Positions 9,418 to 63,770 of a stretch of 64,000 nt of DNA are shown here, one piece after another. Under the pieces are notes generated by a model. The model was not told the DNA's origin and searched no databases. It saw only the letters and a program-made list of their open reading frames with translations. The stretch's first letter is position 1. The number at the start of each line of letters is the position of its first letter. A program made the position numbers and the translations under genes. The DNA comes from Candidatus Dojkabacteria bacterium UBA2259 (lineage in GTDB: Bacteria > Patescibacteriota > Dojkabacteria > SC72), in NCBI GenBank assembly GCA_002347605.1, contig DDXN01000001.1, positions 9,701 to 73,700 of the forward strand, in the 5' to 3' direction.

Positions 9418-12400
9418 TTAAATTTTAATCTCTTCTAGATCCTTTATCTCTGTTAGCGCAGCACTCGCTCCAGATGGAATCCTTCTTCCAATTATTACAT
9501 TCTCTTTCATACCTCGAAGGAAGTCTGTCTTACCAAGAATTGCACTATTAGTTAAAACTCTTACCTGCTCTTGGAATGACATAGCCGAAAGGAAGCTTTC
9601 TGTATACAGTGCAGAGGCTTTAATACCAAGTAATTTTGGAACTATTCTAGCTTTTCTCTGTCCCTTATCTACAAGTATTCTGTTTTTTACATCTGATACA
9701 AACCTATTTACCATTGATCCAACCAAATACTCGGTATCCCCTGAGCTCATAACTTTTCCTAATCTTGCCATCTGTCTAATAATTACCTCAATATGAAGGT
9801 CATCAATTGCAACAGCTTGCTCATTGAAAACTTTCTGTACTTGATCAAGTATGTACTTTTGTGCAACCTGAAGACCAGCGACCTCTGCTAACTTCTTAGG
9901 GTCAACTGCACCACCTACAAGTTGTGTACCTGCCTCAATCTCTTGGCCATCATGAACCAAAATCTCAATATTTGGTAAAACAGATACGCTCTCTTCTGCT
10001 TTAACTGAGCCCGAAAGAGTTAATACTCCTCCCTCTATTTTCACATCACCCTCAAACGGTGCCTGTTTTTCCATCCCCTCAGAATCAATATATATAGCTT
10101 GACCACCCTTTACCTTAGCTCCATCAGTAACCAATACACTCTTAGCATCAGAAACAACTTCTTCTTTTATCATATCTCTCTTTCCTACAATTGTTATTGT
10201 TGCGGAATCATCTTCTGCCCTATCTATATGTACCTTTCCACTAATACTGGATATTTCGGCTTCTGCTTTTGGAGACCTTGCTTCAAACAACTCTTCAATC
10301 CTAGGCAATCCTTGTGTTATATCTGTGGTCTGAACACCTCCTTTATGGAATGTCTGCATAGTCATTTGGGTACCAGGTTCACCAATGGATTGAGCAGCAA
10401 TTACTCCAACAGCTTTACCCATTTCTATCTCTTCACCATTTTCCAGATTAAGACCGTAACACTTCTTACACATTCCTAAGGGTGATTTACATAGAATTGG
10501 TGTTCTAACAGATACCTCTTCAATTCCCTCATTGTTTATTTTTTCTGAAAGCTCTCTTGTAATCTGTTCGTTCTTTTTGATTATGACATTTCCTTTGGAA
10601 TCTTTTAAATCCTTTGCAACTACTCTTCCAAACAATCTTTTGTCAAATGGCATTCTTCTATCATCACTTCTTCTAATTGGGAATCCGTCTCCTTCATATC
10701 CACAATCGTCAACCCTAATTATTACATCATGTGCAACATCGACTAATTTTCTAGTTAAATAGCCTGAAGAAGAAGTCCTTAAAGATCTATCAGCAATACC
10801 TTTTCTTCCACCATTTGCTGAAACAAAGTATTCAAATGCATTAAGCCCATCTCTATAGTTTCCCTTAATTGGAAGTGGGACCCAATTTCCTCTAGAATCC
10901 CTAACTACACCTTTAATTGTTAATACCTGTCTTGCCTGAATCTTTCCACCATTTGCCCTTGATTCAACCATTTCATATACAGGATTATTCTTGTCCAATG
11001 TCTTCCATGCTTCATCTGCTAAATCAGAAGCAAAGTCATTCCACATCTCTGTAGAAAGATTAATCTTCTCTTTCTCAGTAATCAGTCCTTGAAGATAGTT
11101 TTCCTGGAGTTGAATATCCTTCTCTTCCATCTCTTTAATCTGAAGTTTTACATCAAAATCTACCTTACAATCTTCAGTACCAAATGAGAAACCAAGGTTA
11201 GTAGCAAATTTAAATCCCATTTCTTTGAGATTGTCTAAAAGCTCAACTACTACTTCTAAAGGATATTTATCCTTTATGCCTTCAACAATATGTGAGATTG
11301 TTTCTCCACTAACTCTTTCGTTAACAAATGGGTATCCTTGTGGCATGATACTGTTGAAAATACATCTCCCAACAGAAGTACTTACTACTTCTTCACCGAT
11401 TTTAACAAGTATCTCCTCACTTATACTAATAATCTCTCTTTCATATGCTTTTATTGCTAAATCAACTGAACCAAAGATTCTTGGTTTTTTACTCTCGTTT
11501 TTGTCAGTCATTAGGTAGAAACCAATTAACATATCTTTTGCTGGGGTAGCTAATACCTCGCCATTAGATATATTAACAATATTTCTAGATGCCATAATAT
11601 CTCTTTTAGCCTCTTCTAATGCCTCTTGGGTTAGAAGTACATGAACAGACATTTGATCTCCATCGAAGTCGGCATTGAAAGCTTTACATACTAATGGGTG
11701 TAACCTAATAGCTTCTCCCTCAACTAGCTTAGGATAGAAGGCTTGAATACTATATTTGTGTAGTGTAGGCGCACGATTCAGCAACACAGGTTTCCCATCT
11801 ATGACCTTTTCTAAGATATCCCATATCATATCCTCTTCCTCTTCTATCATGTCTTTTGCAACCCTAACATTTGGTGCAAACTCTTTATCTAATAGCTCGT
11901 GTATTACAAAGGGCTTGAACATCTCTAGTGCAACAGACTTTGGGATACCACACTGGTCTAATTTCAAGCTAGGGTCTCCAACAATAACGGCACGGCCAGA
12001 GTAGTCAACTCTTTTACCTAGAAGATTCTTTCTAAAGATTCCCTTTTTACCTCTTAAATCGTCCGTAAGTGATTGGTATGGTAATCTCTTACTGTTCATC
12101 ATAGCCTTAGATGGCCTATGAGAGTTATCTATTACAGCATCCACAGACTCTTGGAGCATTCTTTTCTCATTTCTTAATATTACATCTGGTGCTCCTATCT
12201 CAATCAATCTAGCTAACCTATTATTTCTGTTAATTACCCTCCTGTACAAATCATTTAAATCAGAAGTAGCAAATTTACCCCCTGAGAGAGGAATAATTGG
12301 CCTTAACTCTGGTGGAAGTACTGGCAGAATCTCAATAACCATCCAACTTGGGTCAATACCATTTTGATTAAAACCTTCTAGATACTGTATTCTCCTTATT

Positions 12401-55773: not shown

Positions 55774-55828
55774 TATAATAGTAAGATTTGTGTTATTATT
55801 GTATATTAAATTATACAAATTTAACACA

Positions 55829-56137
55829 AATATGAACAAAGTAAAAACATACAAAAGTATTACAAAACAGATAACATTTCCACAAAAGTTGATGGACAGA
55901 GTTGAGAGTAAGGCTGAAAGTTTAGGGTATTCTCTTCCTGCATATGTTAGATATGTACTTACCAAGGAGATTGAAAAACAATCATATCCAGTACTTGATG
56001 GTGTAGTGATAGATGAAGAGATGGTCAATAGTCTTAAAAAGGGTATAAAAGAACACAAGGAAGGGAAATCAAAAGAGCTCAAAAGTGTAAAAGATATTGA
56101 AATGTTCTGTAGGGGGATTTTGAAAGATGAGAATTAA
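55829..56137 (+). CDS. DinJ/RelB-family antitoxin
   Basis: ITFPQKLMDRVESKAESLGYSLPAYVRYVL resembles the DinJ N-terminal ribbon-helix-helix (IDEDLKNQAADVLAGMGLTISDLVRITL). The ORF track starts at 55790 (MLLLYIK...), but the ATG at 55829 (MNKVKTYK...) is the more likely start. Overlaps the toxin gene by 11 nt. Confidence 0.6.
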   Translation, partial: NMNKVKTYKSITKQITFPQKLMDRVESKAESLGYSLPAYVRYVLTKEIEKQSYPVLDGVVIDEEMVNSLKKGIKEHKEGKSKELKSVKDIEMFCRGILKDEN

Positions 56138-56420
56138 ATATCCCTTTAAATATACCCAAGACTTCTATTATAATTTCAAAAGGATTGCGAAAAAGGATAG
56201 GCGTTTAATAATTAGTATAGAAAAAGTTTTAAAGACACTATCTATAGAACCTTTTTCAAAATCTCTCAGAACTCATTATGTGGAAGTATCTTCTCTAGGA
56301 AAGGTATATAGCTCAAGAGTAAATGGAGATATCCGAATCTTATGGATAATTGATAATCAAGGGACCATTCTTATTCTAAGAGTCGGTAGTCACTCTGGTA
56401 GTTCAAAGGTATATAGATAA
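56127..56420 (+). CDS. RelE/YafQ-family mRNA interferase toxin
   Basis: C-terminus GDIRILWIIDNQGTILILRVGSHSGSSKVY parallels the RelE YRLVYQVIDEKVVVFVISVGKRERSEVY. 97 aa. Confidence 0.7.
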   Translation: MRIKYPFKYTQDFYYNFKRIAKKDRRLIISIEKVLKTLSIEPFSKSLRTHYVEVSSLGKVYSSRVNGDIRILWIIDNQGTILILRVGSHSGSSKVYR

Positions 56421-56451
56421 ATGGTATAATATACACGTTCTTTAAGAATAT

Positions 56452-56863
56452 GGGGACGTTAGGCTTTCGACAGAAGTATATAGGTGCTGTTGTCACAAAT
56501 CGTTTTTTAGTTCGTAAAACTAAAACACAGATAAGTGTAGAAAACAAACTTAACGCTTTTGCAAGTAAGCTAAGGGCTGCATTTATTGCACCTTCTTATG
56601 CTTACAATTTTGCATAAGTTTGATCAATTAATTTTGGTCAATGTCTACCTTTCTTATCCCTAGTTAGGGGAGATAGACAGTCGTTACTAGGGTATAGTAT
56701 GTATTCTTTGTCAGTAGAGGATCCATAGTGAATATAATTACTGAGTAGGTTATACTTTTTGTTAGATTTTTTAGTGTAATCTAGCTATATAAATCTAAAT
56801 ATATTTGTAAATGACATTGTACTTAGCTTTTGGACGTGGGTTCAAATCCCACCGTCTCCACCA
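56452..56863 (+). ncRNA. ssrA: tmRNA (ssrA)
   Basis: 5' GGGGACGUUAGGCUUUCGACAG... and 3' ...GGACGUGGGUUCAAAUCCCACCGUCUCCACCA closely resemble Bacillus-type tmRNA ends (from memory). The acceptor 5' GGGGACG pairs with 3' CGUCUCC, including the G3:U70 alanine identity pair. A T-arm and encoded CCA are present. The tag ORF is not assigned with confidence. Confidence 0.75.
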
Positions 56864-58412
56864 TATCAGGTTCGTTATTGGTAATTGCTTCAAAAAGGGT
56901 TATTGGAAGAGAATAGTTAGGGGTTCGATAACCCTCTATTTTGTCATACTCTAAATTCGTATCAAAGATAAAAGAAAAGAACTTCTGTTTTTGATATACA
57001 TCGTAGTTTTCCCATACAGTATAAGGTTTCTGTAAAACCTCAAGAACTTCTTTAGAAGAGGTTCGATAAGGAATAGAGTAATCAACATCTGTCTTTATTC
57101 TGTTTTCCAGTATCTCTACCTCTTCTCCATATTTCTGAATTTGTTTTTCGTATTGTTTTAACACGGTTGAATTAGTGGTTCTAATTGCGAAAGAGGCGTA
57201 TTTCTCTATTTCGTGTTCTATTTTCTCCTTGTTTCCTATGTCTTCTTCTCTTGCGTTTTGGAGGTTACCTATCTCTATCTTCCAAGCATCTTCAAAGATA
57301 GCAAGGGATAGGTTTATTAGGTCCTCTGACGCCCTGATTTGACCTAGAAGGGCACTAAAACCTGCATGTATGTCTTCTGCCCTAATGCTTTTCCCATACA
57401 TCTCACACTCCTTGTTGGCACATTTGTAATAAGGGTGTAGTTTCCCTGTTTTACTTCTAGAAGATGCACCTGTCAGTTTCTTCCCGCAACAAGCACAGTT
57501 AATTAATCCTCTGAGGAAAAAATCCTCTCTTATATCTTTTCTTACAAAGGAAGGTGTTTTACCTTCTAAGATTTTCTGATTTCTTTCAAAGGTCTTAATA
57601 TCTATAATACCCTTATGATGTCCCTCCCTTCTAATTACTTCCCATTTTGGAAACTCTATATAACCTGCATAAAAGGGGTTCTTAAGAAGGTTTGTAAAGG
57701 TTACAATCCCTTTGTTGGCGTGTTGGTTGTTGCTTATAACACCTTTCTTTTGGAGATATCTTACAGCATCAATTTTATTTTCGAATCTTCTATTAGCAAA
57801 ACCCTCTAACGCCCCTTTAATAAACTCTGCATTCCTTGTAGGGATATCTATAGTCCCATGTATAGGGTCTTTTATTTTCTTGTATCCTAGAGGCGCACAG
57901 AACGCCCAATAACCGTTTCTAAGTCGTGCTTGTTGTTTCTGTATCACTTGTCTTTGGTTTTGTTGTCTTTCTAGTTGATTATGTGCCGCCTGCAATGTCT
58001 CAAAGTAGATTCCCTCAGGAGTATCATCAAAATCGTAATTCAAACACAATAGAATAACATCTCTAATTTTTAAGGCACTTCGTAATTTAATATGACCTTC
58101 GGTATCTCTTGCAAACCTCTTAAGGTCATCAAATACAACAACAAAACTTTTATGCGGATTTTTATCTATATACTCTAGCATCTCTCTCATTGCGGGTCTT
58201 TTCATAAAATCTCCTCCCCCTGTAAAACTGTCAAAGAAACTCCTTTCATAAGGGATGTTTTCTTCTCTTAATTTGGATAAGCACCTTTCTTCTTGACTCT
58301 CTAATCCATGTCCTTCCGTTCTCTGTTTTCTTGCAGATACCCTTGCATATATTAATCCAACTTTGTTTTTATAAAGGTTGTTATTGCGAAACGAACCCAT
58401 TTCACTATCCAT
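56823..58412 (-). CDS. Large serine recombinase (phage-type integrase)
   Basis: N-terminal resolvase catalytic domain GLIYARVSARKQRTEGHGLESQEE with the catalytic Ser in YARVS. Also a recombinase domain, a zinc ribbon CACCGKKL...YYKCANKEC and a C-terminal coiled-coil. The last ~13 codons overlap the ssrA 3' end. Confidence 0.85.
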   Translation of the reverse strand: MDSEMGSFRNNNLYKNKVGLIYARVSARKQRTEGHGLESQEERCLSKLREENIPYERSFFDSFTGGGDFMKRPAMREMLEYIDKNPHKSFVVVFDDLKRFARDTEGHIKLRSALKIRDVILLCLNYDFDDTPEGIYFETLQAAHNQLERQQNQRQVIQKQQARLRNGYWAFCAPLGYKKIKDPIHGTIDIPTRNAEFIKGALEGFANRRFENKIDAVRYLQKKGVISNNQHANKGIVTFTNLLKNPFYAGYIEFPKWEVIRREGHHKGIIDIKTFERNQKILEGKTPSFVRKDIREDFFLRGLINCACCGKKLTGASSRSKTGKLHPYYKCANKECEMYGKSIRAEDIHAGFSALLGQIRASEDLINLSLAIFEDAWKIEIGNLQNAREEDIGNKEKIEHEIEKYASFAIRTTNSTVLKQYEKQIQKYGEEVEILENRIKTDVDYSIPYRTSSKEVLEVLQKPYTVWENYDVYQKQKFFSFIFDTNLEYDKIEGYRTPNYSLPITLFEAITNNEPDMVETVGFEPTSKS

Positions 58413-58887
58413 TTCTTTTTAATTCTAAGAGTTTATTTATTGCTTTATACATGCGATTCTCTATCGAGGTCTCATATCTTGCATAATAAGAGGATAAATA
58501 CTCCATGTGAGATGTTGTAACTACTGGTTTATAACCGTCCCTTTCTTTAAAAGTATCTAAATCAAGTAGTTTTGATACTATTGTTGGGTCGATGGCGGTC
58601 TTCATTAGTTCTGCTTCTGCTTTTGCAACTCTTAAAAGTTTTATATAGGCAACTGAGATTCTTTCTATCAAAATCTCTTCTAGAGTGTTTTTAGGTGGGA
58701 AATCTTGAGATAGTGAATTATAAAAATTAAGGAAATCAAACTCCTCATACTCAGATACACTTTTTTTTAAGATACCATGCTTAACTGCATTGAATCTTGA
58801 TACCTCTTTTCCTTCTTCGGTTTTGACTCCTCCCAATTTACTGTTTTCCCTGTTCGCCTCTAACTGTTTTTCTGTTATGTTCTTCAT
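58405..58887 (-). CDS. Hypothetical protein (island cargo)
   Basis: 160-aa ORF overlapping the recombinase start by 8 nt. No motif. Confidence 0.4.
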   Translation of the reverse strand: MKNITEKQLEANRENSKLGGVKTEEGKEVSRFNAVKHGILKKSVSEYEEFDFLNFYNSLSQDFPPKNTLEEILIERISVAYIKLLRVAKAEAELMKTAIDPTIVSKLLDLDTFKERDGYKPVVTTSHMEYLSSYYARYETSIENRMYKAINKLLELKRNG

Positions 58888-59053
58888 AAATCTTAATGTT
58901 TTTATTTATTATCTCTTTTGCTAAGGAATATATGTAATATCTGATTTTTTCAATGTCATCATTGCTTATATCCCTAGTGGGAAGGTATTCCCGACATTTT
59001 TCTACACTTAACATTTTATGTAATGGATAATCTGGTTCTAGGGTTTCTAGCAA
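58838..59053 (-). CDS. Hypothetical small protein
   Basis: 71-aa ORF. Weak support. Confidence 0.25.
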   Translation of the reverse strand: MLETLEPDYPLHKMLSVEKCREYLPTRDISNDDIEKIRYYIYSLAKEIINKNIKIYEEHNRKTVRGEQGKQ

Positions 59054-59092
59054 CTCAGATTAATAAGTAAGGGTTTCGATTTGTTCGACAAC

Positions 59093-59902
59093 CTATTTCT
59101 TATCAATGCGTTCTAAAAGAACAACCTTGCCGTTTTCTTGCTTAATTAATAGTTCCTTTCTTCCCTCTTCCTTGAGTGCTTTAGATATATACTCTTGGAC
59201 ATTCTTAGGATTTTGAGTTTTCTTAACATAATCAATTCTGTTAATCTTTTTATCTTGCACGGATATTCTAACCTCTCCTAAATTCTCTTCTGTCATTATA
59301 GAAAAGAGTAAATCAGTTTCCTTCTCGTTTGGACTTATTACTAAGTTTGTATTGTAACTAAGTTCTGGTTTTTTAACACTTCTCGAGAATATATCATTTA
59401 ATCTTATTACGATATGAGGGGAGGGAAGGGGACTAATTAATTGGGAATTTATATATTCTGTATCCAAGCAAAGGTCTGCCTCTCCTTTGGGAGTAATGAC
59501 CAGAAGGACATTGTCTTTAATAAACATTCTTCCAATAAACAATTCAAAGTAGAGGGTGTCCTCCTTTCCATCTTCTCTTCTATGGAAAATACATTTTTTG
59601 ATATTGTTAATCTTATCAAGGGGGAACCCGATTTTTCTTAGATCTCCTACAACACCTATCCAGAGAATATCAATTAAACTGAATTTCCTCCAACCAGAGT
59701 TTCTTCCTTTCTGTTTTAGTAATATATTTTTCTCTTCCCAATGATTGATGATTCTGTAACTTTGAGATGTAGAGGACATAGACACTTTTCTTTTTCTAAT
59801 AATCTCTCTTACGGGAGAAAACTTTTCACCTTGATAATCCCCTAACCAGAAGTCAAACCAATCGCTGTGATGTATTGTAAAAGGTAAGATGTTTATTCCC
59901 AT
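59093..59902 (-). CDS. MerR-family-like HTH protein (candidate element regulator / recombination directionality factor)
   Basis: The segment ILLKQKGRNSGWRKFSLIDILWIGVVGDLRKIGFPLDKI fits the MerR wing/helix pattern (ESGYRLYS..DL..L..I..LR..GFSL.EI). The remaining ~180 aa are unassigned. Confidence 0.45.
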   Translation of the reverse strand: MGINILPFTIHHSDWFDFWLGDYQGEKFSPVREIIRKRKVSMSSTSQSYRIINHWEEKNILLKQKGRNSGWRKFSLIDILWIGVVGDLRKIGFPLDKINNIKKCIFHRREDGKEDTLYFELFIGRMFIKDNVLLVITPKGEADLCLDTEYINSQLISPLPSPHIVIRLNDIFSRSVKKPELSYNTNLVISPNEKETDLLFSIMTEENLGEVRISVQDKKINRIDYVKKTQNPKNVQEYISKALKEEGRKELLIKQENGKVVLLERIDKK

Positions 59903-60004
59903 ATATAAATTATACGCCAGTGTATAATTTAGTCAAGGGGATTGTTTAATACCCATCTTTGGTTATTCAAGCGATGTGGGATATAATAAATAACAAAAAG
60001 ATAT

Positions 60005-62131
60005 ATGGACTCCACTTACAATAACAAAAAATTGACTTTATCAGAGATGCAGCAAATTGCAAAAGAAAGAGGAGGGGAGTGTCTGTCAGAAGAGTATGTA
60101 AATGTTATAACCCCATTAGAGTGGAAGTGTTCAGAAGGGCACAAATGGAAATCAACGCCACATAATATTAAAAGAGGAAGATGGTGTCCTGTTTGCGGTA
60201 GATACAAGAAAAGAAAGTATAAAACCAAATACTCTATTGTTGATATGAGGGAAATTGCAGAAGAAAGAGGAGGAAAGTGCTTATCTAAAGAATTTCTTAA
60301 TAGTAACACGCATTTAGTATGGGAGTGTAAGAGGGGTCATCGATGGAACGCCCGTCCAACACAAGTAATTAGTGGTTCATGGTGTCCCTTTTGTGTGTAT
60401 GAGGATAGGAAAAGAACCATAGAAGAAATGCAGCAAATTGCAAAAGAGAGAGGAGGGAAGTGCTTATCTACAGAGTATATAAACATTGATACAAAATTAC
60501 TTTGGGAGTGTTCGAAGGGTCATAAATGGGAAGCAATACCCTACAATATTGTTTCTGGGAGAAATTGGTGTCCTGTTTGTAGGAAAAAATATATTGCTAC
60601 TGATAATCCTTCGGGCTACACAATAAAAGACATGCAGAACATTGCTACTCAGAAAGGTGGAAAGTGTTTGTCAAAGAAATATCTGGGAAGTCATTATAAA
60701 TTGACATGGAGATGCAAAGTAGGTCACGAATGGGAATCTCGTCCAACAACTATACTTAGTGGTGGGTGGTGTCCTATATGTTCAATAGAGAAGAGGGCGA
60801 ATTCCTCAAGAAAGTATTCAATAAAAGATTTTAAAATAATTGCTGAAGAGAGGCATGGGGAATGTTTATCAACAGAGTTTACAAACAGTGATTTAAAATT
60901 AAGGTGGAGATGTAACAAAGGGCACGAATGGGAAGCAAGTGGGCGGGCAATTATTAACGGACAATGGTGTCCAATGTGTAGAACATATAGGAGAGAAGAG
61001 ATTTGCCGTAATATTATTGAGTATTATTTTGAAAAGCAATTCCCTAAGAAAAGACCTAAATGGCTAATCAATTCCAAAGGAAATATTATGGAATTGGATG
61101 GATACAACGAAGAGTTAGGGGTAGCATTTGAACACCAAGGACTTCAGCACTATGAGGAAACAGAATTTTTCAATAGGGAGAAAGATTTAGCAACTCAGAA
61201 AAAACTTGATAGGGAAAAACGGGAAAAATGCTTGGAGAAGGAGGTCTTTTTATTAGAAATCCCTTATTTAATACCTGTTGAAGAGTTGGAGAAATACATC
61301 TTGAATCTTTGTGACGAGAATTCTCTTGCAAGAAAAATAAAGAGGGAAATGACAAGGGATGAGATTTTAAATGTTTATAGTCCTAAGGAGACGGAAGAAC
61401 TAAGGGAGATAGCAAAGATGAGAGGTGGGAAACTGTTGTCTAAGGTTTATGTCACTGCCACGATACCCCTTGTCTGGAGGTGCAGCAAGGGGCACGAATG
61501 GAAGGCAAATCCCCACATGGTGAGAAGAGGAACCTGGTGCCCTATATGTGGCAATGATGTCCGTAGGGGCAACATAGAGGAGTGTATACAGTTAGCGAGG
61601 AAAATGGGTGGGGAATGTCTGTCTACAGAATATTTGAATAGTTACAAAAAGATGAAATGGAAGTGCAAAGAAGGTCATATTTGGTTTGCATCTTTTGGTC
61701 AATTGAAAAATGAAAACACATGGTGTTCAATATGCAGTAATAAAAAGAGGAGACTTGGCTTAGAGAGGATGAAAGAACTTGCGAGAGAACGGGGGGGAGA
61801 GTGTTTATCAACAGAATATTTTGGGATTGGGGAGAAATTAAAGTGGAGATGCAAATATGGTCACGAGTGGAATGTTGCACCAAAACATATTGTGGCAGAT
61901 GACTCATGGTGTCCTGTATGTGCCAGAGAGGGGAGGAAAAAAACAATAGAAGAGATGCAACAAATTGCAAAAGATAGGGGAGGAAAGTGTTTATCAAAAA
62001 AGTATGTAGGCGTAAATGCACATTTACTTTGGAAATGTAAACAAGGTCATAAGTGGAAAGCAACACCAAGCAATGTTTTGCGAGGAACGTGGTGTCCTGC
62101 ATGTGCTTTGACGCAACGGAAGAGGGGATAA
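60005..62131 (+). CDS. Multi-zinc-ribbon repeat protein (9 x ~62-aa GHxW...WCPxC modules) with a central Vsr/DUF559-like putative endonuclease domain
   Basis: Nine repeats of the form [ST]IEEMQQIAKERGGKCLSxEYxNxxxKLxWxCxxGHxWxAxPxxIxxGxWCPVC; five lie N-terminal and four C-terminal to the core. The central ~130-aa region ...IMELDGYNEELGVAFEHQGLQHY...DREKREKCLEKEVFLLEIPY resembles the DUF559/very-short-patch-repair-like PD-(D/E)xK pattern (vDG..H...D..R..L...G..VlR). The repeat resembles the GHEW/CP probable zinc-ribbon family (recalled as DUF4379). Confidence 0.6.
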   Translation: MDSTYNNKKLTLSEMQQIAKERGGECLSEEYVNVITPLEWKCSEGHKWKSTPHNIKRGRWCPVCGRYKKRKYKTKYSIVDMREIAEERGGKCLSKEFLNSNTHLVWECKRGHRWNARPTQVISGSWCPFCVYEDRKRTIEEMQQIAKERGGKCLSTEYINIDTKLLWECSKGHKWEAIPYNIVSGRNWCPVCRKKYIATDNPSGYTIKDMQNIATQKGGKCLSKKYLGSHYKLTWRCKVGHEWESRPTTILSGGWCPICSIEKRANSSRKYSIKDFKIIAEERHGECLSTEFTNSDLKLRWRCNKGHEWEASGRAIINGQWCPMCRTYRREEICRNIIEYYFEKQFPKKRPKWLINSKGNIMELDGYNEELGVAFEHQGLQHYEETEFFNREKDLATQKKLDREKREKCLEKEVFLLEIPYLIPVEELEKYILNLCDENSLARKIKREMTRDEILNVYSPKETEELREIAKMRGGKLLSKVYVTATIPLVWRCSKGHEWKANPHMVRRGTWCPICGNDVRRGNIEECIQLARKMGGECLSTEYLNSYKKMKWKCKEGHIWFASFGQLKNENTWCSICSNKKRRLGLERMKELARERGGECLSTEYFGIGEKLKWRCKYGHEWNVAPKHIVADDSWCPVCAREGRKKTIEEMQQIAKDRGGKCLSKKYVGVNAHLLWKCKQGHKWKATPSNVLRGTWCPACALTQRKRG
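60029..62120. repeat. Intragenic DNA repeats encoding the zinc-ribbon modules
   Basis: For example, agagatgcagcaaattgcaaaagaaagaggagg at about 60043, agaaatgcagcaaattgcaaaagagagaggagg at about 60424, and agagatgcaacaaattgcaaaagatagggg at about 61950. Confidence 0.55.
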
Positions 62132-62210
62132 TTAAACCATCTTTATCCTAAAAGAAATATGTAACCGAGATTTTGAGAACTTTAATTTCTCAAGGTATCT
62201 TTATATAATC

Positions 62211-62924
62211 GTGGTAATGCAAGGAAAGAAGTTTAAAGTTAAAAGCGAAAGCGGTGATATTCAAGAAATTCTGAGTTTTGTCCTTGTTATTTTTAATGAA
62301 GTTTTACCAATTGCTGGGGAAGAAGAGTGTATTGTATTTAATGATTCCAGTGCAGAATGTCCTATGCTTATTACTAACAAGAAATCCTTAGAAATCAGAT
62401 TAAACGTAGAGGAAGAATCTAAGTGGAACCAAGTTATCTATCAAATGTCTCACGAAATAATGCATTATGCTCTACGGCAGAAAAGAGAAAAGAAGGGTGA
62501 GATATTGAGTTGGTTTGAGGAAACTCTTTGTGAAGCATTTTCTTTATATACTATGTCGATTGCAATGACAAAGTGGAAGATTTGTAGTTTCTATAAATTG
62601 AATAAGAACTATTATAAGTATATTGGAAGTTACTTTAATAAAGAGTTGAATAAAAAGGGTGACAAAATATCAGAATGTGTTACCCTTGATTGTTTAAGAG
62701 AGATAGATAAAGAAGCAGAAACCCATCGAGAATGGAGATACGACATTAGAAATGCGGTTTTTGAATTGTTTAAGGTGTATCCGAAGGGTATTGCAGAGAT
62801 TCTTGACTATTCAGAATACGTTGAAGAAGATATGTTAACGATCAACTTTTATAAGTGGGAGCAAAATAGCAGGTTCCCTCAATTTATAAAAAAACTAGCA
62901 CTAATACAACCAGAGGTTTGTTAA
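62211..62924 (+). CDS. Hypothetical protein with HExxH motif (possible zinc metallopeptidase, ImmA/IrrE-like?)
   Basis: MSHEIMHYAL contains HEIMH. No other motif is confirmed. Confidence 0.35.
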   Translation: MVMQGKKFKVKSESGDIQEILSFVLVIFNEVLPIAGEEECIVFNDSSAECPMLITNKKSLEIRLNVEEESKWNQVIYQMSHEIMHYALRQKREKKGEILSWFEETLCEAFSLYTMSIAMTKWKICSFYKLNKNYYKYIGSYFNKELNKKGDKISECVTLDCLREIDKEAETHREWRYDIRNAVFELFKVYPKGIAEILDYSEYVEEDMLTINFYKWEQNSRFPQFIKKLALIQPEVC

Positions 62925-62935
62925 TAATTACATAT

Positions 62936-63382
62936 TCAATTTCTCTGTCCTGGTTTCTTTTTCTCTTGGTTCTTCAAATTTTCCCATTTCTTTTGTTCCT
63001 CCAGTTCCAAGACAGGATCTATATACTCTTTCCCTAATAATTTCTTAATTCTTCTGTGAATTTCATCTATCTGAGTCCATAATCTTTGAACCTCGTTTAC
63101 ATGTCTCTCATATTCTTCATTGTCCGATACGTCCATAAGTTCACGTTCATAAACATTTTGACTCAATGCCTTAATGTATTCCTTCCAATCGTTAATAATT
63201 TCTGGAATTTTTGAATTATCAAATTTGTATCTCTCATAAAGTCGAGTAAAATTTTTACTACCACAGTCAAAGAATACTCTTGGATCAGTAAGGTGCTGTT
63301 TGAGATGGGAATTGTTAATCTGATTTAAAAGTTCAAATTCCATCTCTCTCACAGCATCATATTCATTGGAATAGTTATTCAT
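62936..63382 (-). CDS. Hypothetical protein
   Basis: 148-aa charged, helical ORF. No motif. Confidence 0.4.
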   Translation of the reverse strand: MNNYSNEYDAVREMEFELLNQINNSHLKQHLTDPRVFFDCGSKNFTRLYERYKFDNSKIPEIINDWKEYIKALSQNVYERELMDVSDNEEYERHVNEVQRLWTQIDEIHRRIKKLLGKEYIDPVLELEEQKKWENLKNQEKKKPGQRN

Positions 63383-63536
63383 ATTACTAAATACTAAGAT
63401 ATTATCTTAAGTAGCAGAATTATAAATAAACTTTAATAATTTGTCCAATAGGTCCGTATTGTAAGTTTTTATTCTCCCAATTATGAGAGTGTTAGAGATA
63501 TTATTGTTGTATATATTCAATACCAATGTAGTGTAT

Positions 63537-63770
63537 CTATTCATACAGATTATTCTTGTCATTTAGGATATAATTAAGGGCAGGGGGATTGTATTTAAAG
63601 AATTCTGCCCATTGAAGAATAAAGGTTCTTAATGGGTTCGAACTTTTAACTACGATGTCCACCACTTTGATATTTGGGATATTAAGCTCGTTAACTATGC
63701 TGTAAGTAAGATACAATTCATTGGTTCGACATCCTTTATTTTGGAAATATTGAAATCCCTCTGGAAACAT
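63537..63770 (-). CDS. Hypothetical small protein
   Basis: 77-aa ORF. Weak support. Confidence 0.25.
   Translation of the reverse strand: MFPEGFQYFQNKGCRTNELYLTYSIVNELNIPNIKVVDIVVKSSNPLRTFILQWAEFFKYNPPALNYILNDKNNLYE

Follow-up and report, generated by a model that had tools for sequence, protein, structure and literature searches.

What is the role of the regulator-like gene that accompanies the large serine recombinase (LSR) of a small integrated element in Candidatus Dojkabacteria bacterium UBA2259? We addressed this question in a stretch of 64,000 nucleotides (nt) from contig DDXN01000001.1 (positions 9,701 to 73,700; hereafter, the window), in which a genuine open reading frame (ORF) of 269 amino acids (aa), located on the minus strand at 59093-59902, encodes a MerR-like protein. 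An earlier note, made from the DNA letters alone, had recognized a MerR-type helix-turn-helix (HTH) near the N-terminus, had placed the gene two genes from a serine integrase on the same strand, and had proposed either an excisionase or recombination directionality factor (RDF) or a regulatory factor. Our analysis indicates that the protein is probably a non-canonical MerR-type factor that regulates, and most likely represses, its own promoter and the whole integrase operon. The operon and its control region comprise the following features:

59093-59902, minus strand: MerR-like gene, 269 aa, head of the LSR operon
59906-59931: perfect 10+6+10 dyad TAAATTATAC-ACTGGC-GTATAATTTA, putative operator of the MerR-like protein
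59909-59936, minus strand: sigma-70-like promoter (TTGACT, 16-nt spacer, TATAAT) with 11 of 12 consensus matches
58838-59014, minus strand: small ORF of 58 aa (MLSVEKCREY...), candidate RDF
58405-58887, minus strand: 160-aa ORF, overlapping both neighbors and present only in a subset of modules
56823-58412, minus strand: LSR gene, 529 aa in the integrated form, with the Pfam domains Resolvase, Recombinase, and Zn_ribbon_recom

The MerR-type winged HTH is real. The Pfam domain MerR_1 (PF13411) matched aa 47-101 with an E-value of 3.8e-6 and 27.4 bits, exceeding the curated cutoff of 21.6 and thereby confirming the HTH that the earlier note had seen, and a profile built from the family matched MerR regulators in the PDB. 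The peptide at aa 70-95, which corresponds to the wing and helix 3 of the MerR_1 domain, holds most of the family-invariant residues (W71, R72, F74, S75, W81, L88, R89, and G92), and the recognition helix (Y49, R50, I52, N53, H54, and W55) is kept across phyla. In an AlphaFold2 (AF2) model, two additional helices (aa 14-36) precede the winged HTH (about aa 37-105), which is followed by an alpha/beta region (aa 106-175), a linker of low model confidence (aa 178-191), and a C-terminal domain (aa 193-269) that consists of a duplicated alpha-beta-beta unit (alpha-beta-beta x2). The segment directly after the HTH is modeled as a short helix (aa 117-127) and then beta strands (aa 132-167), with no long coiled-coil dimerization helix, and the family alignment contains no Cys among its invariant or nearly invariant columns. 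A Pfam scan at E ≤ 1 returned MerR_1 and a weak match to Cds6_C only, with no match to the Xis, HTH_17, or AlpA models; past aa 105 there was no Pfam domain, searches of PHROGs, NCBIfam, and PADLOC added nothing to the MerR HTH, and Foldseek gave weak top matches, which were to proteins of the YbjN/AmyR family (prob 0.8-0.94, E about 0.1). By its HTH, the protein belongs to the MerR superfamily, but it departs from the canonical activators in the coiled coil, the promoter spacer length, and the effector site.

The region upstream of the gene contains the putative target of this HTH. The dyad tAAAnnTAC-N6-GTAnnTTTa, or a one-mismatch variant of it, is present within ~130 nt upstream of essentially every family member examined, often in two copies. 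The exact TAC-N6-GTA core was found in 50 of 67 upstream intervals of 133 nt versus 69 of 3980 background intervals from the same loci (1.7%), and among the first 24 loci the dyad sites were 53-fold denser upstream of the gene than elsewhere (7.4 versus 0.14 per kb). Dyads outside the upstream region had no consistent position among the other loci. In the window, no sequence in the 64 kb except that at 59908-59929 matches the dyad core with fewer than 3 mismatches; no dyad lies at the element ends next to the attachment (att) sites, the promoter being the sole site. Both the half-site and the recognition helix are conserved across phyla, as phylogenetic footprinting would lead one to expect if the factor is autoregulated. 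The dyads were also considered as att sites of the LSR, an assignment that we rejected because they lie within the element and occur in LSR-less loci too.

The right half of the dyad includes the −10 hexamer of the MerR-like promoter, and this hexamer ends 6 nt ahead of the ATG of the MerR-like gene, so that a leaderless mRNA is predicted. Homology with a sister element (locus L001) starts at 59937, adjoining the −35 hexamer; the conserved module starts at the MerR-like promoter, and the position of the gene at the head of the operon is kept. The spacer of 19-20 bp found at canonical MerR-activated promoters is absent from the window, where a dyad overlapping the −10 is combined with a spacer of 16 nt; at loci L008 and L031, the spacers, read by eye, are of 17 nt, and the −35 or the −10 lies inside the dyad. 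This geometry, unlike that of the 19-20-nt promoters of MerR activators, favors repression by occlusion. The conserved, promoter-overlapping dyad, as a putative operator, fits the regulatory half of the earlier proposal.

In the mechanism that we propose, a dimer, by way of the invariant Y49-R50-x-I52-N53-H54-W55 helix, would bind the TAC-N6-GTA dyad and occlude RNA polymerase, so that expression of the integrase and of the candidate RDF would be kept low. The operon mRNA would be leaderless, and the C-terminal alpha/beta domains may mediate dimerization and/or sense a signal that lifts the repression, with directionality coming more plausibly from the co-transcribed small ORF. The protein is most likely an autoregulator of the MerR type that is encoded by a mobile element, has a new architecture in its C-terminal part, and stands at the head of a conserved LSR operon. 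Several points weigh against this interpretation. Promoter consensus matches show no enrichment in this AT-rich stretch of DNA (20 found versus 27 expected), promoter geometry is the sole ground for preferring repression, as the most likely mode, over activation, and ~160 conserved C-terminal residues could hold a second function.

A word-indexed search yielded 16 relatives, whereas an exhaustive profile search yielded 2658 representatives at 50% identity with E ≤ 0.001, 1822 with E ≤ 1e-10, and at least 518 with E ≤ 1e-30; nearly all of the best 150 profile matches were 250-300 aa long and aligned over the whole profile. Judged by these matches, the family is large, and profile libraries describe only its MerR_1 domain. 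One truncated protein in the same cluster carries the annotation Candidatus Dojkabacteria. Locus contexts, cited below by locus number, were drawn from look-ups of exact proteins, from a scan with one genome per species, which gave 20 loci in Bacteroidota, Alphaproteobacteria, Omnitrophota, Zhuqueibacterota, Deltaproteobacteria, and Dojkabacteria, and from a metagenome scan, which gave 80. Clustering of the MerR-like proteins at 80% identity produced 71 clusters, 52 of which had at least 1 kb of sequence downstream. A same-strand LSR followed in 41 of these 52 independent clusters (79%), at a distance of at most 1 kb in 40, and 17 single downstream ORFs were confirmed as LSRs by Pfam (two of them being parts of one split gene). 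The linkage spans several phyla. The co-occurrence with large serine integrases to which the earlier note had tied its proposal therefore holds, as does the same-strand arrangement in the window, where two ORFs lie in between. Origin from a phage or plasmid was also considered, and no relatives were found in INPHARED phages, PLSDB plasmids, or IMG/VR.

Co-occurrence with an LSR is not obligate, as 11 of the 52 clusters lack one. Seven of these 11 form a coherent, derived clade in a neighbor-joining tree (the Bacteroidota loci L019, L022, L023, L069, L077, L079, and L087), and their genes stand ahead of AIM24 plus OmpA or OmpA-family genes, or adjoin convergent genes for SPFH/flotillin or glycoside hydrolase family 3 (GH3)/beta-lactamase proteins. 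The LSR-less members checked on the family profile, L019, L022, and L023 among them, proved to be full length, and most of the seven clade members keep the exact dyad core upstream. Full-length LSR-less members with the dyad imply that the core activity of the MerR-like protein is independent of the serine integrase. Elsewhere among the LSR-less loci, L033 represents an element in decay, in which a fragment of an LSR and a tRNA-Glu gene are present. At L006, the gene that follows the homologue matched tyrosine-integrase models only weakly, below threshold. As a side observation, the LSR-less Bacteroidota clade resembles a domesticated regulator of envelope genes.

On the minus strand of the window, the MerR-like gene (59902-59093) is followed by the small ORF, the 160-aa ORF (58887-58405), and the LSR gene (58412-56823), the product of which matched the PHROG integrase with an E-value of 8e-59. 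The reading frames overlap successively from the small ORF onward, and there are no terminator-like sites between the operon genes on this strand. The 58-aa small ORF sits inside a 71-aa ORF with a TTG start (58838-59053) and has a conserved Met at 59014. Its family, with members of about 50-60 aa and the pattern MLSIxECRxIL...[ST][DE]xE[IV]xxLRxxLYxLAxI, occupies the position between the MerR-like gene and the LSR gene, often overlapping the start of the latter. A hidden Markov model (HMM) of the small ORF matched 38 of the 41 LSR-linked clusters versus 1 of the 11 LSR-less clusters, and comparisons with Pfam, PHROG, and PDB revealed no known family. Because it tracks the LSR and is small, the small ORF appears to be a better RDF candidate than the MerR-like protein. 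Homologues of the 160-aa ORF (E 1e-18 to 1e-42) were found between the small ORF and the LSR gene in distant modules, which there consist of four genes (loci including L044, L050, L051, L053, L063, L084, L100-L103, L110, and L112), and by this distribution the 160-aa ORF, to which no family is assigned, is a fourth gene of the module, conserved but optional.

The boundaries of the element and the division between module and cargo became apparent from comparison with the sister element, and involve the following features of the window:

56452-56863, plus strand: tmRNA gene (ssrA), the integration target, identified with ARAGORN
60005-63382: variable cargo, encoding proteins of 708 aa (plus strand), 237 aa (plus strand), and 148 aa (minus strand)
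60005-62131, plus strand: 708-aa cargo protein with nine DUF4379 treble-clef zinc-finger matches, and with CapR-homology matches
62211-62924, plus strand: 237-aa cargo protein with an HExxH motif (SHEIMHYAL) and no family match
63515-63664: distal element end, ending ...GGGTTCGAACTTTTAACTACGATGTCCACCA, with 94.7% identity to L001, L002, and L003

The MerR-like protein of the sister element is 88% identical to that of the window, and blastn comparison of the two revealed two conserved blocks. The first (56419-59937, 86% identity) encompasses the tmRNA gene, the LSR gene, both small ORFs, and the MerR-like gene with its promoter, whereas the second is confined to the 150 bp of the distal end (63515-63664, 94.7% identity). 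The cargo between the blocks differs, the sister element carrying a ScaI-like restriction-modification system. By this comparison, the MerR-like gene belongs to the conserved integration module and not to the cargo. A 7-bp core, TCCACCA, is present at both element ends, namely, at 56857-56863 (integrase-proximal, in the tmRNA gene) and at 63658-63664 (distal), and the sequence at the distal end (GGGTTCGAAC...TCCACCA) is a mimic of the tmRNA 3' terminus (GGGTTCAAATCCCACCGTCTCCACCA). Past the distal core lie three unrelated host flanks, one in the window, one in L001/L003, and one in L002. The shared TCCACCA ends, together with the three different flanks, delimit an element of ~6.8 kb at 56864-63664.

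The last 41 nt of the LSR gene, stop codon included, are antisense to the 3' end of the tmRNA gene. When the element ends are joined, with ...GATGTCCACCA followed by TATCAGGTTCG... at the predicted junction of the circular form, the integrase ORF of 529 aa (tail MVETVGFEPTSKS) becomes one of 558 aa (tail MVDIVVKSSNPLRTF...NNLYE); the alternative tail of the circular form, which has 42 residues and comes after the shared Met, would be encoded on the minus strand of the distal 150 bp. Integration would swap the C-terminus of the integrase, and this swap could contribute to directionality or to expression control. Of the 36 complete LSRs of the clade, 26 have an antisense tRNA or tmRNA gene at the 3' end of their own gene (tRNA Glu, Asn, Ala, Thr, Arg, or His, or tmRNA), and most of these LSR frames end inside it, with C-termini such as ...GFEP, GVEP, and GLEP. 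The antisense genes are found at the following loci:

window, L001, L008, L015, L017, L020, L021, L024-L026, L028, L029, L031
L032, L034, L047, L052-L054, L057, L060, L066, L075, L093, L097, L101, L113

Since the LSR frames end inside the tRNA or tmRNA gene, attP appears to lie within the integrase gene. This clade of LSRs consistently targets tRNA and tmRNA genes; a survey from 2020 recorded the use of such genes in only 14 of 297 serine-integrase elements and termed it previously unreported (PMC7192596). A paper on the Riemerella 10K island deals with a tyrosine integrase. At locus L004, a tyrosine integrase gene (10779-11786) directly follows the LSR gene, where other loci have the target tRNA; no tRNA was found there, and L004 may represent a tandem or nested element.

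Among known systems, the closest structure to the MerR-like protein is CvkR (Alr3614; PDB 7xn2), a MerR-type repressor of type V-K CRISPR-associated transposons, which is translated from a leaderless mRNA and dimerizes via beta strands rather than a coiled coil (PMC9938897). Both proteins have a MerR winged HTH and lack the canonical antiparallel coiled coil (here by model), both are encoded inside a mobile element beside mobility genes, and both have a palindromic operator (here putative); leaderless translation has been shown for CvkR and is predicted for the MerR-like protein. There is no detectable sequence relationship, 7xn2 being absent from the PDB profile search of the MerR-like family at E ≤ 1. 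The operators also differ (AnnACATnATGTnnT in CvkR versus TAC-N6-GTA, within tAAAnnTAC-N6-GTAnnTTTa, in the MerR-like family), as do the proteins, with CvkR comprising 150 aa versus the 269 aa of the MerR-like protein with its two extra N-terminal helices and extra C-terminal domain. The cvkR gene is divergent from cas12k, whereas the MerR-like gene heads a recombinase operon, and the partner is a Tn7-like transposase in one case and a serine integrase in the other. By analogy, the MerR-like protein most likely works like CvkR and like phage and transposon repressors made from leaderless mRNAs, while standing outside the CvkR family by sequence and operator.

The canonical MerR activators (MerR, CueR, SoxR, and BmrR) share with the MerR-like protein the MerR_1 winged HTH and a dyad inside the promoter. 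Their promoters have spacers of 19-20 nt, versus 16-17 nt in the MerR-like family, and a dyad in the middle of the spacer, versus one centered near the −10; the MerR-like protein, in turn, has no long dimerization helix, conserved Cys, or known effector domain. Winged-HTH excisionases and RDFs (lambda Xis, Tn916 Xis, AlpA, RdfS, and phiRv1 Xis) resemble it in winged-helix DNA binding, predicted here, and in being encoded in the integration module. They are short proteins, in contrast to the 269-aa MerR-like protein, which has its dyad at the promoter and no HTH_17, Xis, or AlpA match. The RdfS paper ties them to tyrosine recombinases (PMC11963761). The known RDFs of LSRs have no common fold and contact the second DNA-binding domain (DBD2) and the coiled coil of the integrase (PMC12286644). 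Those of phiC31 (gp3), Bxb1 (gp47), SPbeta (SprB), TP901-1 (Orf7), and A118 (Gp44) are, like the MerR-like protein, encoded in the same element as a large serine integrase, but it has no similarity to any of them, and the 58-aa ORF, with its size and its strict coupling to the LSR, is closer to them. Apparent "MerR" matches in the LSR and RDF literature proved, in the top paper, to be the author name Merrick.

It is against this background that other explanations for the MerR-like protein have to be weighed. The protein might itself be the RDF, alone or besides autoregulation, with its C-terminal domains contacting the integrase so as to promote attL x attR excision. Tight, phylum-spanning synteny with LSRs in 41 of 52 clusters is consistent with such a role, and so are the conserved C-terminal ~165 aa, which have no assigned role, and the weak Foldseek matches to YbjN/AmyR family proteins. 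As known LSR RDFs have no fold in common, sequence alone cannot decide the matter (PMC12286644), and winged-HTH RDFs of tyrosine systems, such as RdfS, can regulate transcription too, although the RdfS paper ties these RDFs to tyrosine recombinases (PMC11963761). We nonetheless consider an RDF role unlikely, given that a clade of full-length members has no recombinase, that the L006 homologue is paired with a weakly tyrosine-integrase-like gene, that the dyad of the window is found at the promoter only and is absent from the element ends, and that no excisionase-type HTH model matches the protein. The small ORF, which has the typical size of small RDFs, covaries far better with the LSR (38 of 41 versus 1 of 11 clusters). 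The excisionase or RDF half of the earlier note is thus without direct support: the domain is MerR_1, of the transcription-factor type, and 269 aa is not the size of an Xis protein. What stands of that note is the HTH, the LSR linkage, and the idea of a regulatory factor.

Two further explanations look beyond the recombinase. According to one, the protein would be a classical effector-responsive MerR activator (of the metal, drug, or redox type) serving the divergent cargo gene, its adjacency to the integrase being incidental. The confirmed MerR_1 domain and the 102-bp divergent intergenic region common to the MerR-like gene and the 708-aa cargo gene would suit this, yet sister elements differ in cargo but retain the MerR-like gene and its promoter together with the integrase, the spacer is of 16 nt instead of the 19-20 nt of MerR-activated promoters, the model lacks a long coiled-coil helix after the HTH, and no Cys occupies an invariant or nearly invariant column; this explanation is highly improbable. 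The other assigns to the protein a different role in element maintenance, such as silencing of cargo restriction or nuclease genes at establishment, or immunity to or exclusion of sister elements. The cargo of related elements does consist mostly of restriction-modification systems, and leaderless expression would allow early synthesis upon entry. However, the ScaI-type cargo has an HTH_3 protein of its own, encoded next to the restriction gene, and the dyad, which occurs only once in the element of the window, sits at the promoter of the MerR-like gene itself, so that we regard a role of this kind as quite improbable.

Autoregulation of the integrase operon remains the interpretation that we prefer. 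A bolder version of it would see in the MerR-like protein the sensor and switch of an undescribed class of miniature elements that spans phyla; its C-terminal domain would bind the integrase or the small protein, making it repressor and directionality factor at once, which we consider unlikely. Such elements would combine a module of MerR-like gene, small ORF, and LSR gene with the targeting of the 3' ends of tRNA and tmRNA genes, would often carry restriction or nuclease cargo, and would have attP inside an integrase whose tail is swapped (529 aa integrated versus 558 aa circular). Native regulation and reversal of large serine integrases are known for a handful of phages only, and most of the thousands of LSRs used or mined for genome engineering have no known RDF or regulator. 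The analysis defines a large uncharacterized family, a conserved operator that is directly testable, and a compact three-gene module with a strong RDF candidate in the small ORF.

The cargo itself shows a mixture of features. The 708-aa protein has strong matches to PHROG endonuclease families (phrog_559 HNH endonuclease, E 4e-96) and matches to homing-endonuclease families near aa 330-470, and its gene contains internal DNA repeats of 174-198 nt and has the highest GC content (0.385) and GC skew (+0.35) in the window. The HExxH motif of the 237-aa protein suggests a metallopeptidase-like protein. In the related elements L001, L002, and L003, the cargo is the ScaI-like type II system, in which the gene for the HTH_3 protein adjoins the restriction gene; further related cargo includes a pair of ResIII and methyltransferase genes of type III-like character (L004/L005) and an Eco57I-type fusion plus Mrr (L008). 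The miniature LSR elements thus appear to shuttle restriction-modification systems.

A short way upstream of the tmRNA gene, at 55790-56420 on the plus strand, two small ORFs of 115 and 97 aa overlap; we take them to resemble a toxin-antitoxin pair, the 97-aa product presumably bearing a RelE/ParE-like C-terminal motif. Finally, a 28-nt direct repeat (75% identity) with a promoter-like sequence, TTATTC...GGATATAAT, occurs at 59963-59990 and 63550-63577, the first copy preceding the 708-aa cargo gene and the second lying close to the distal element end.
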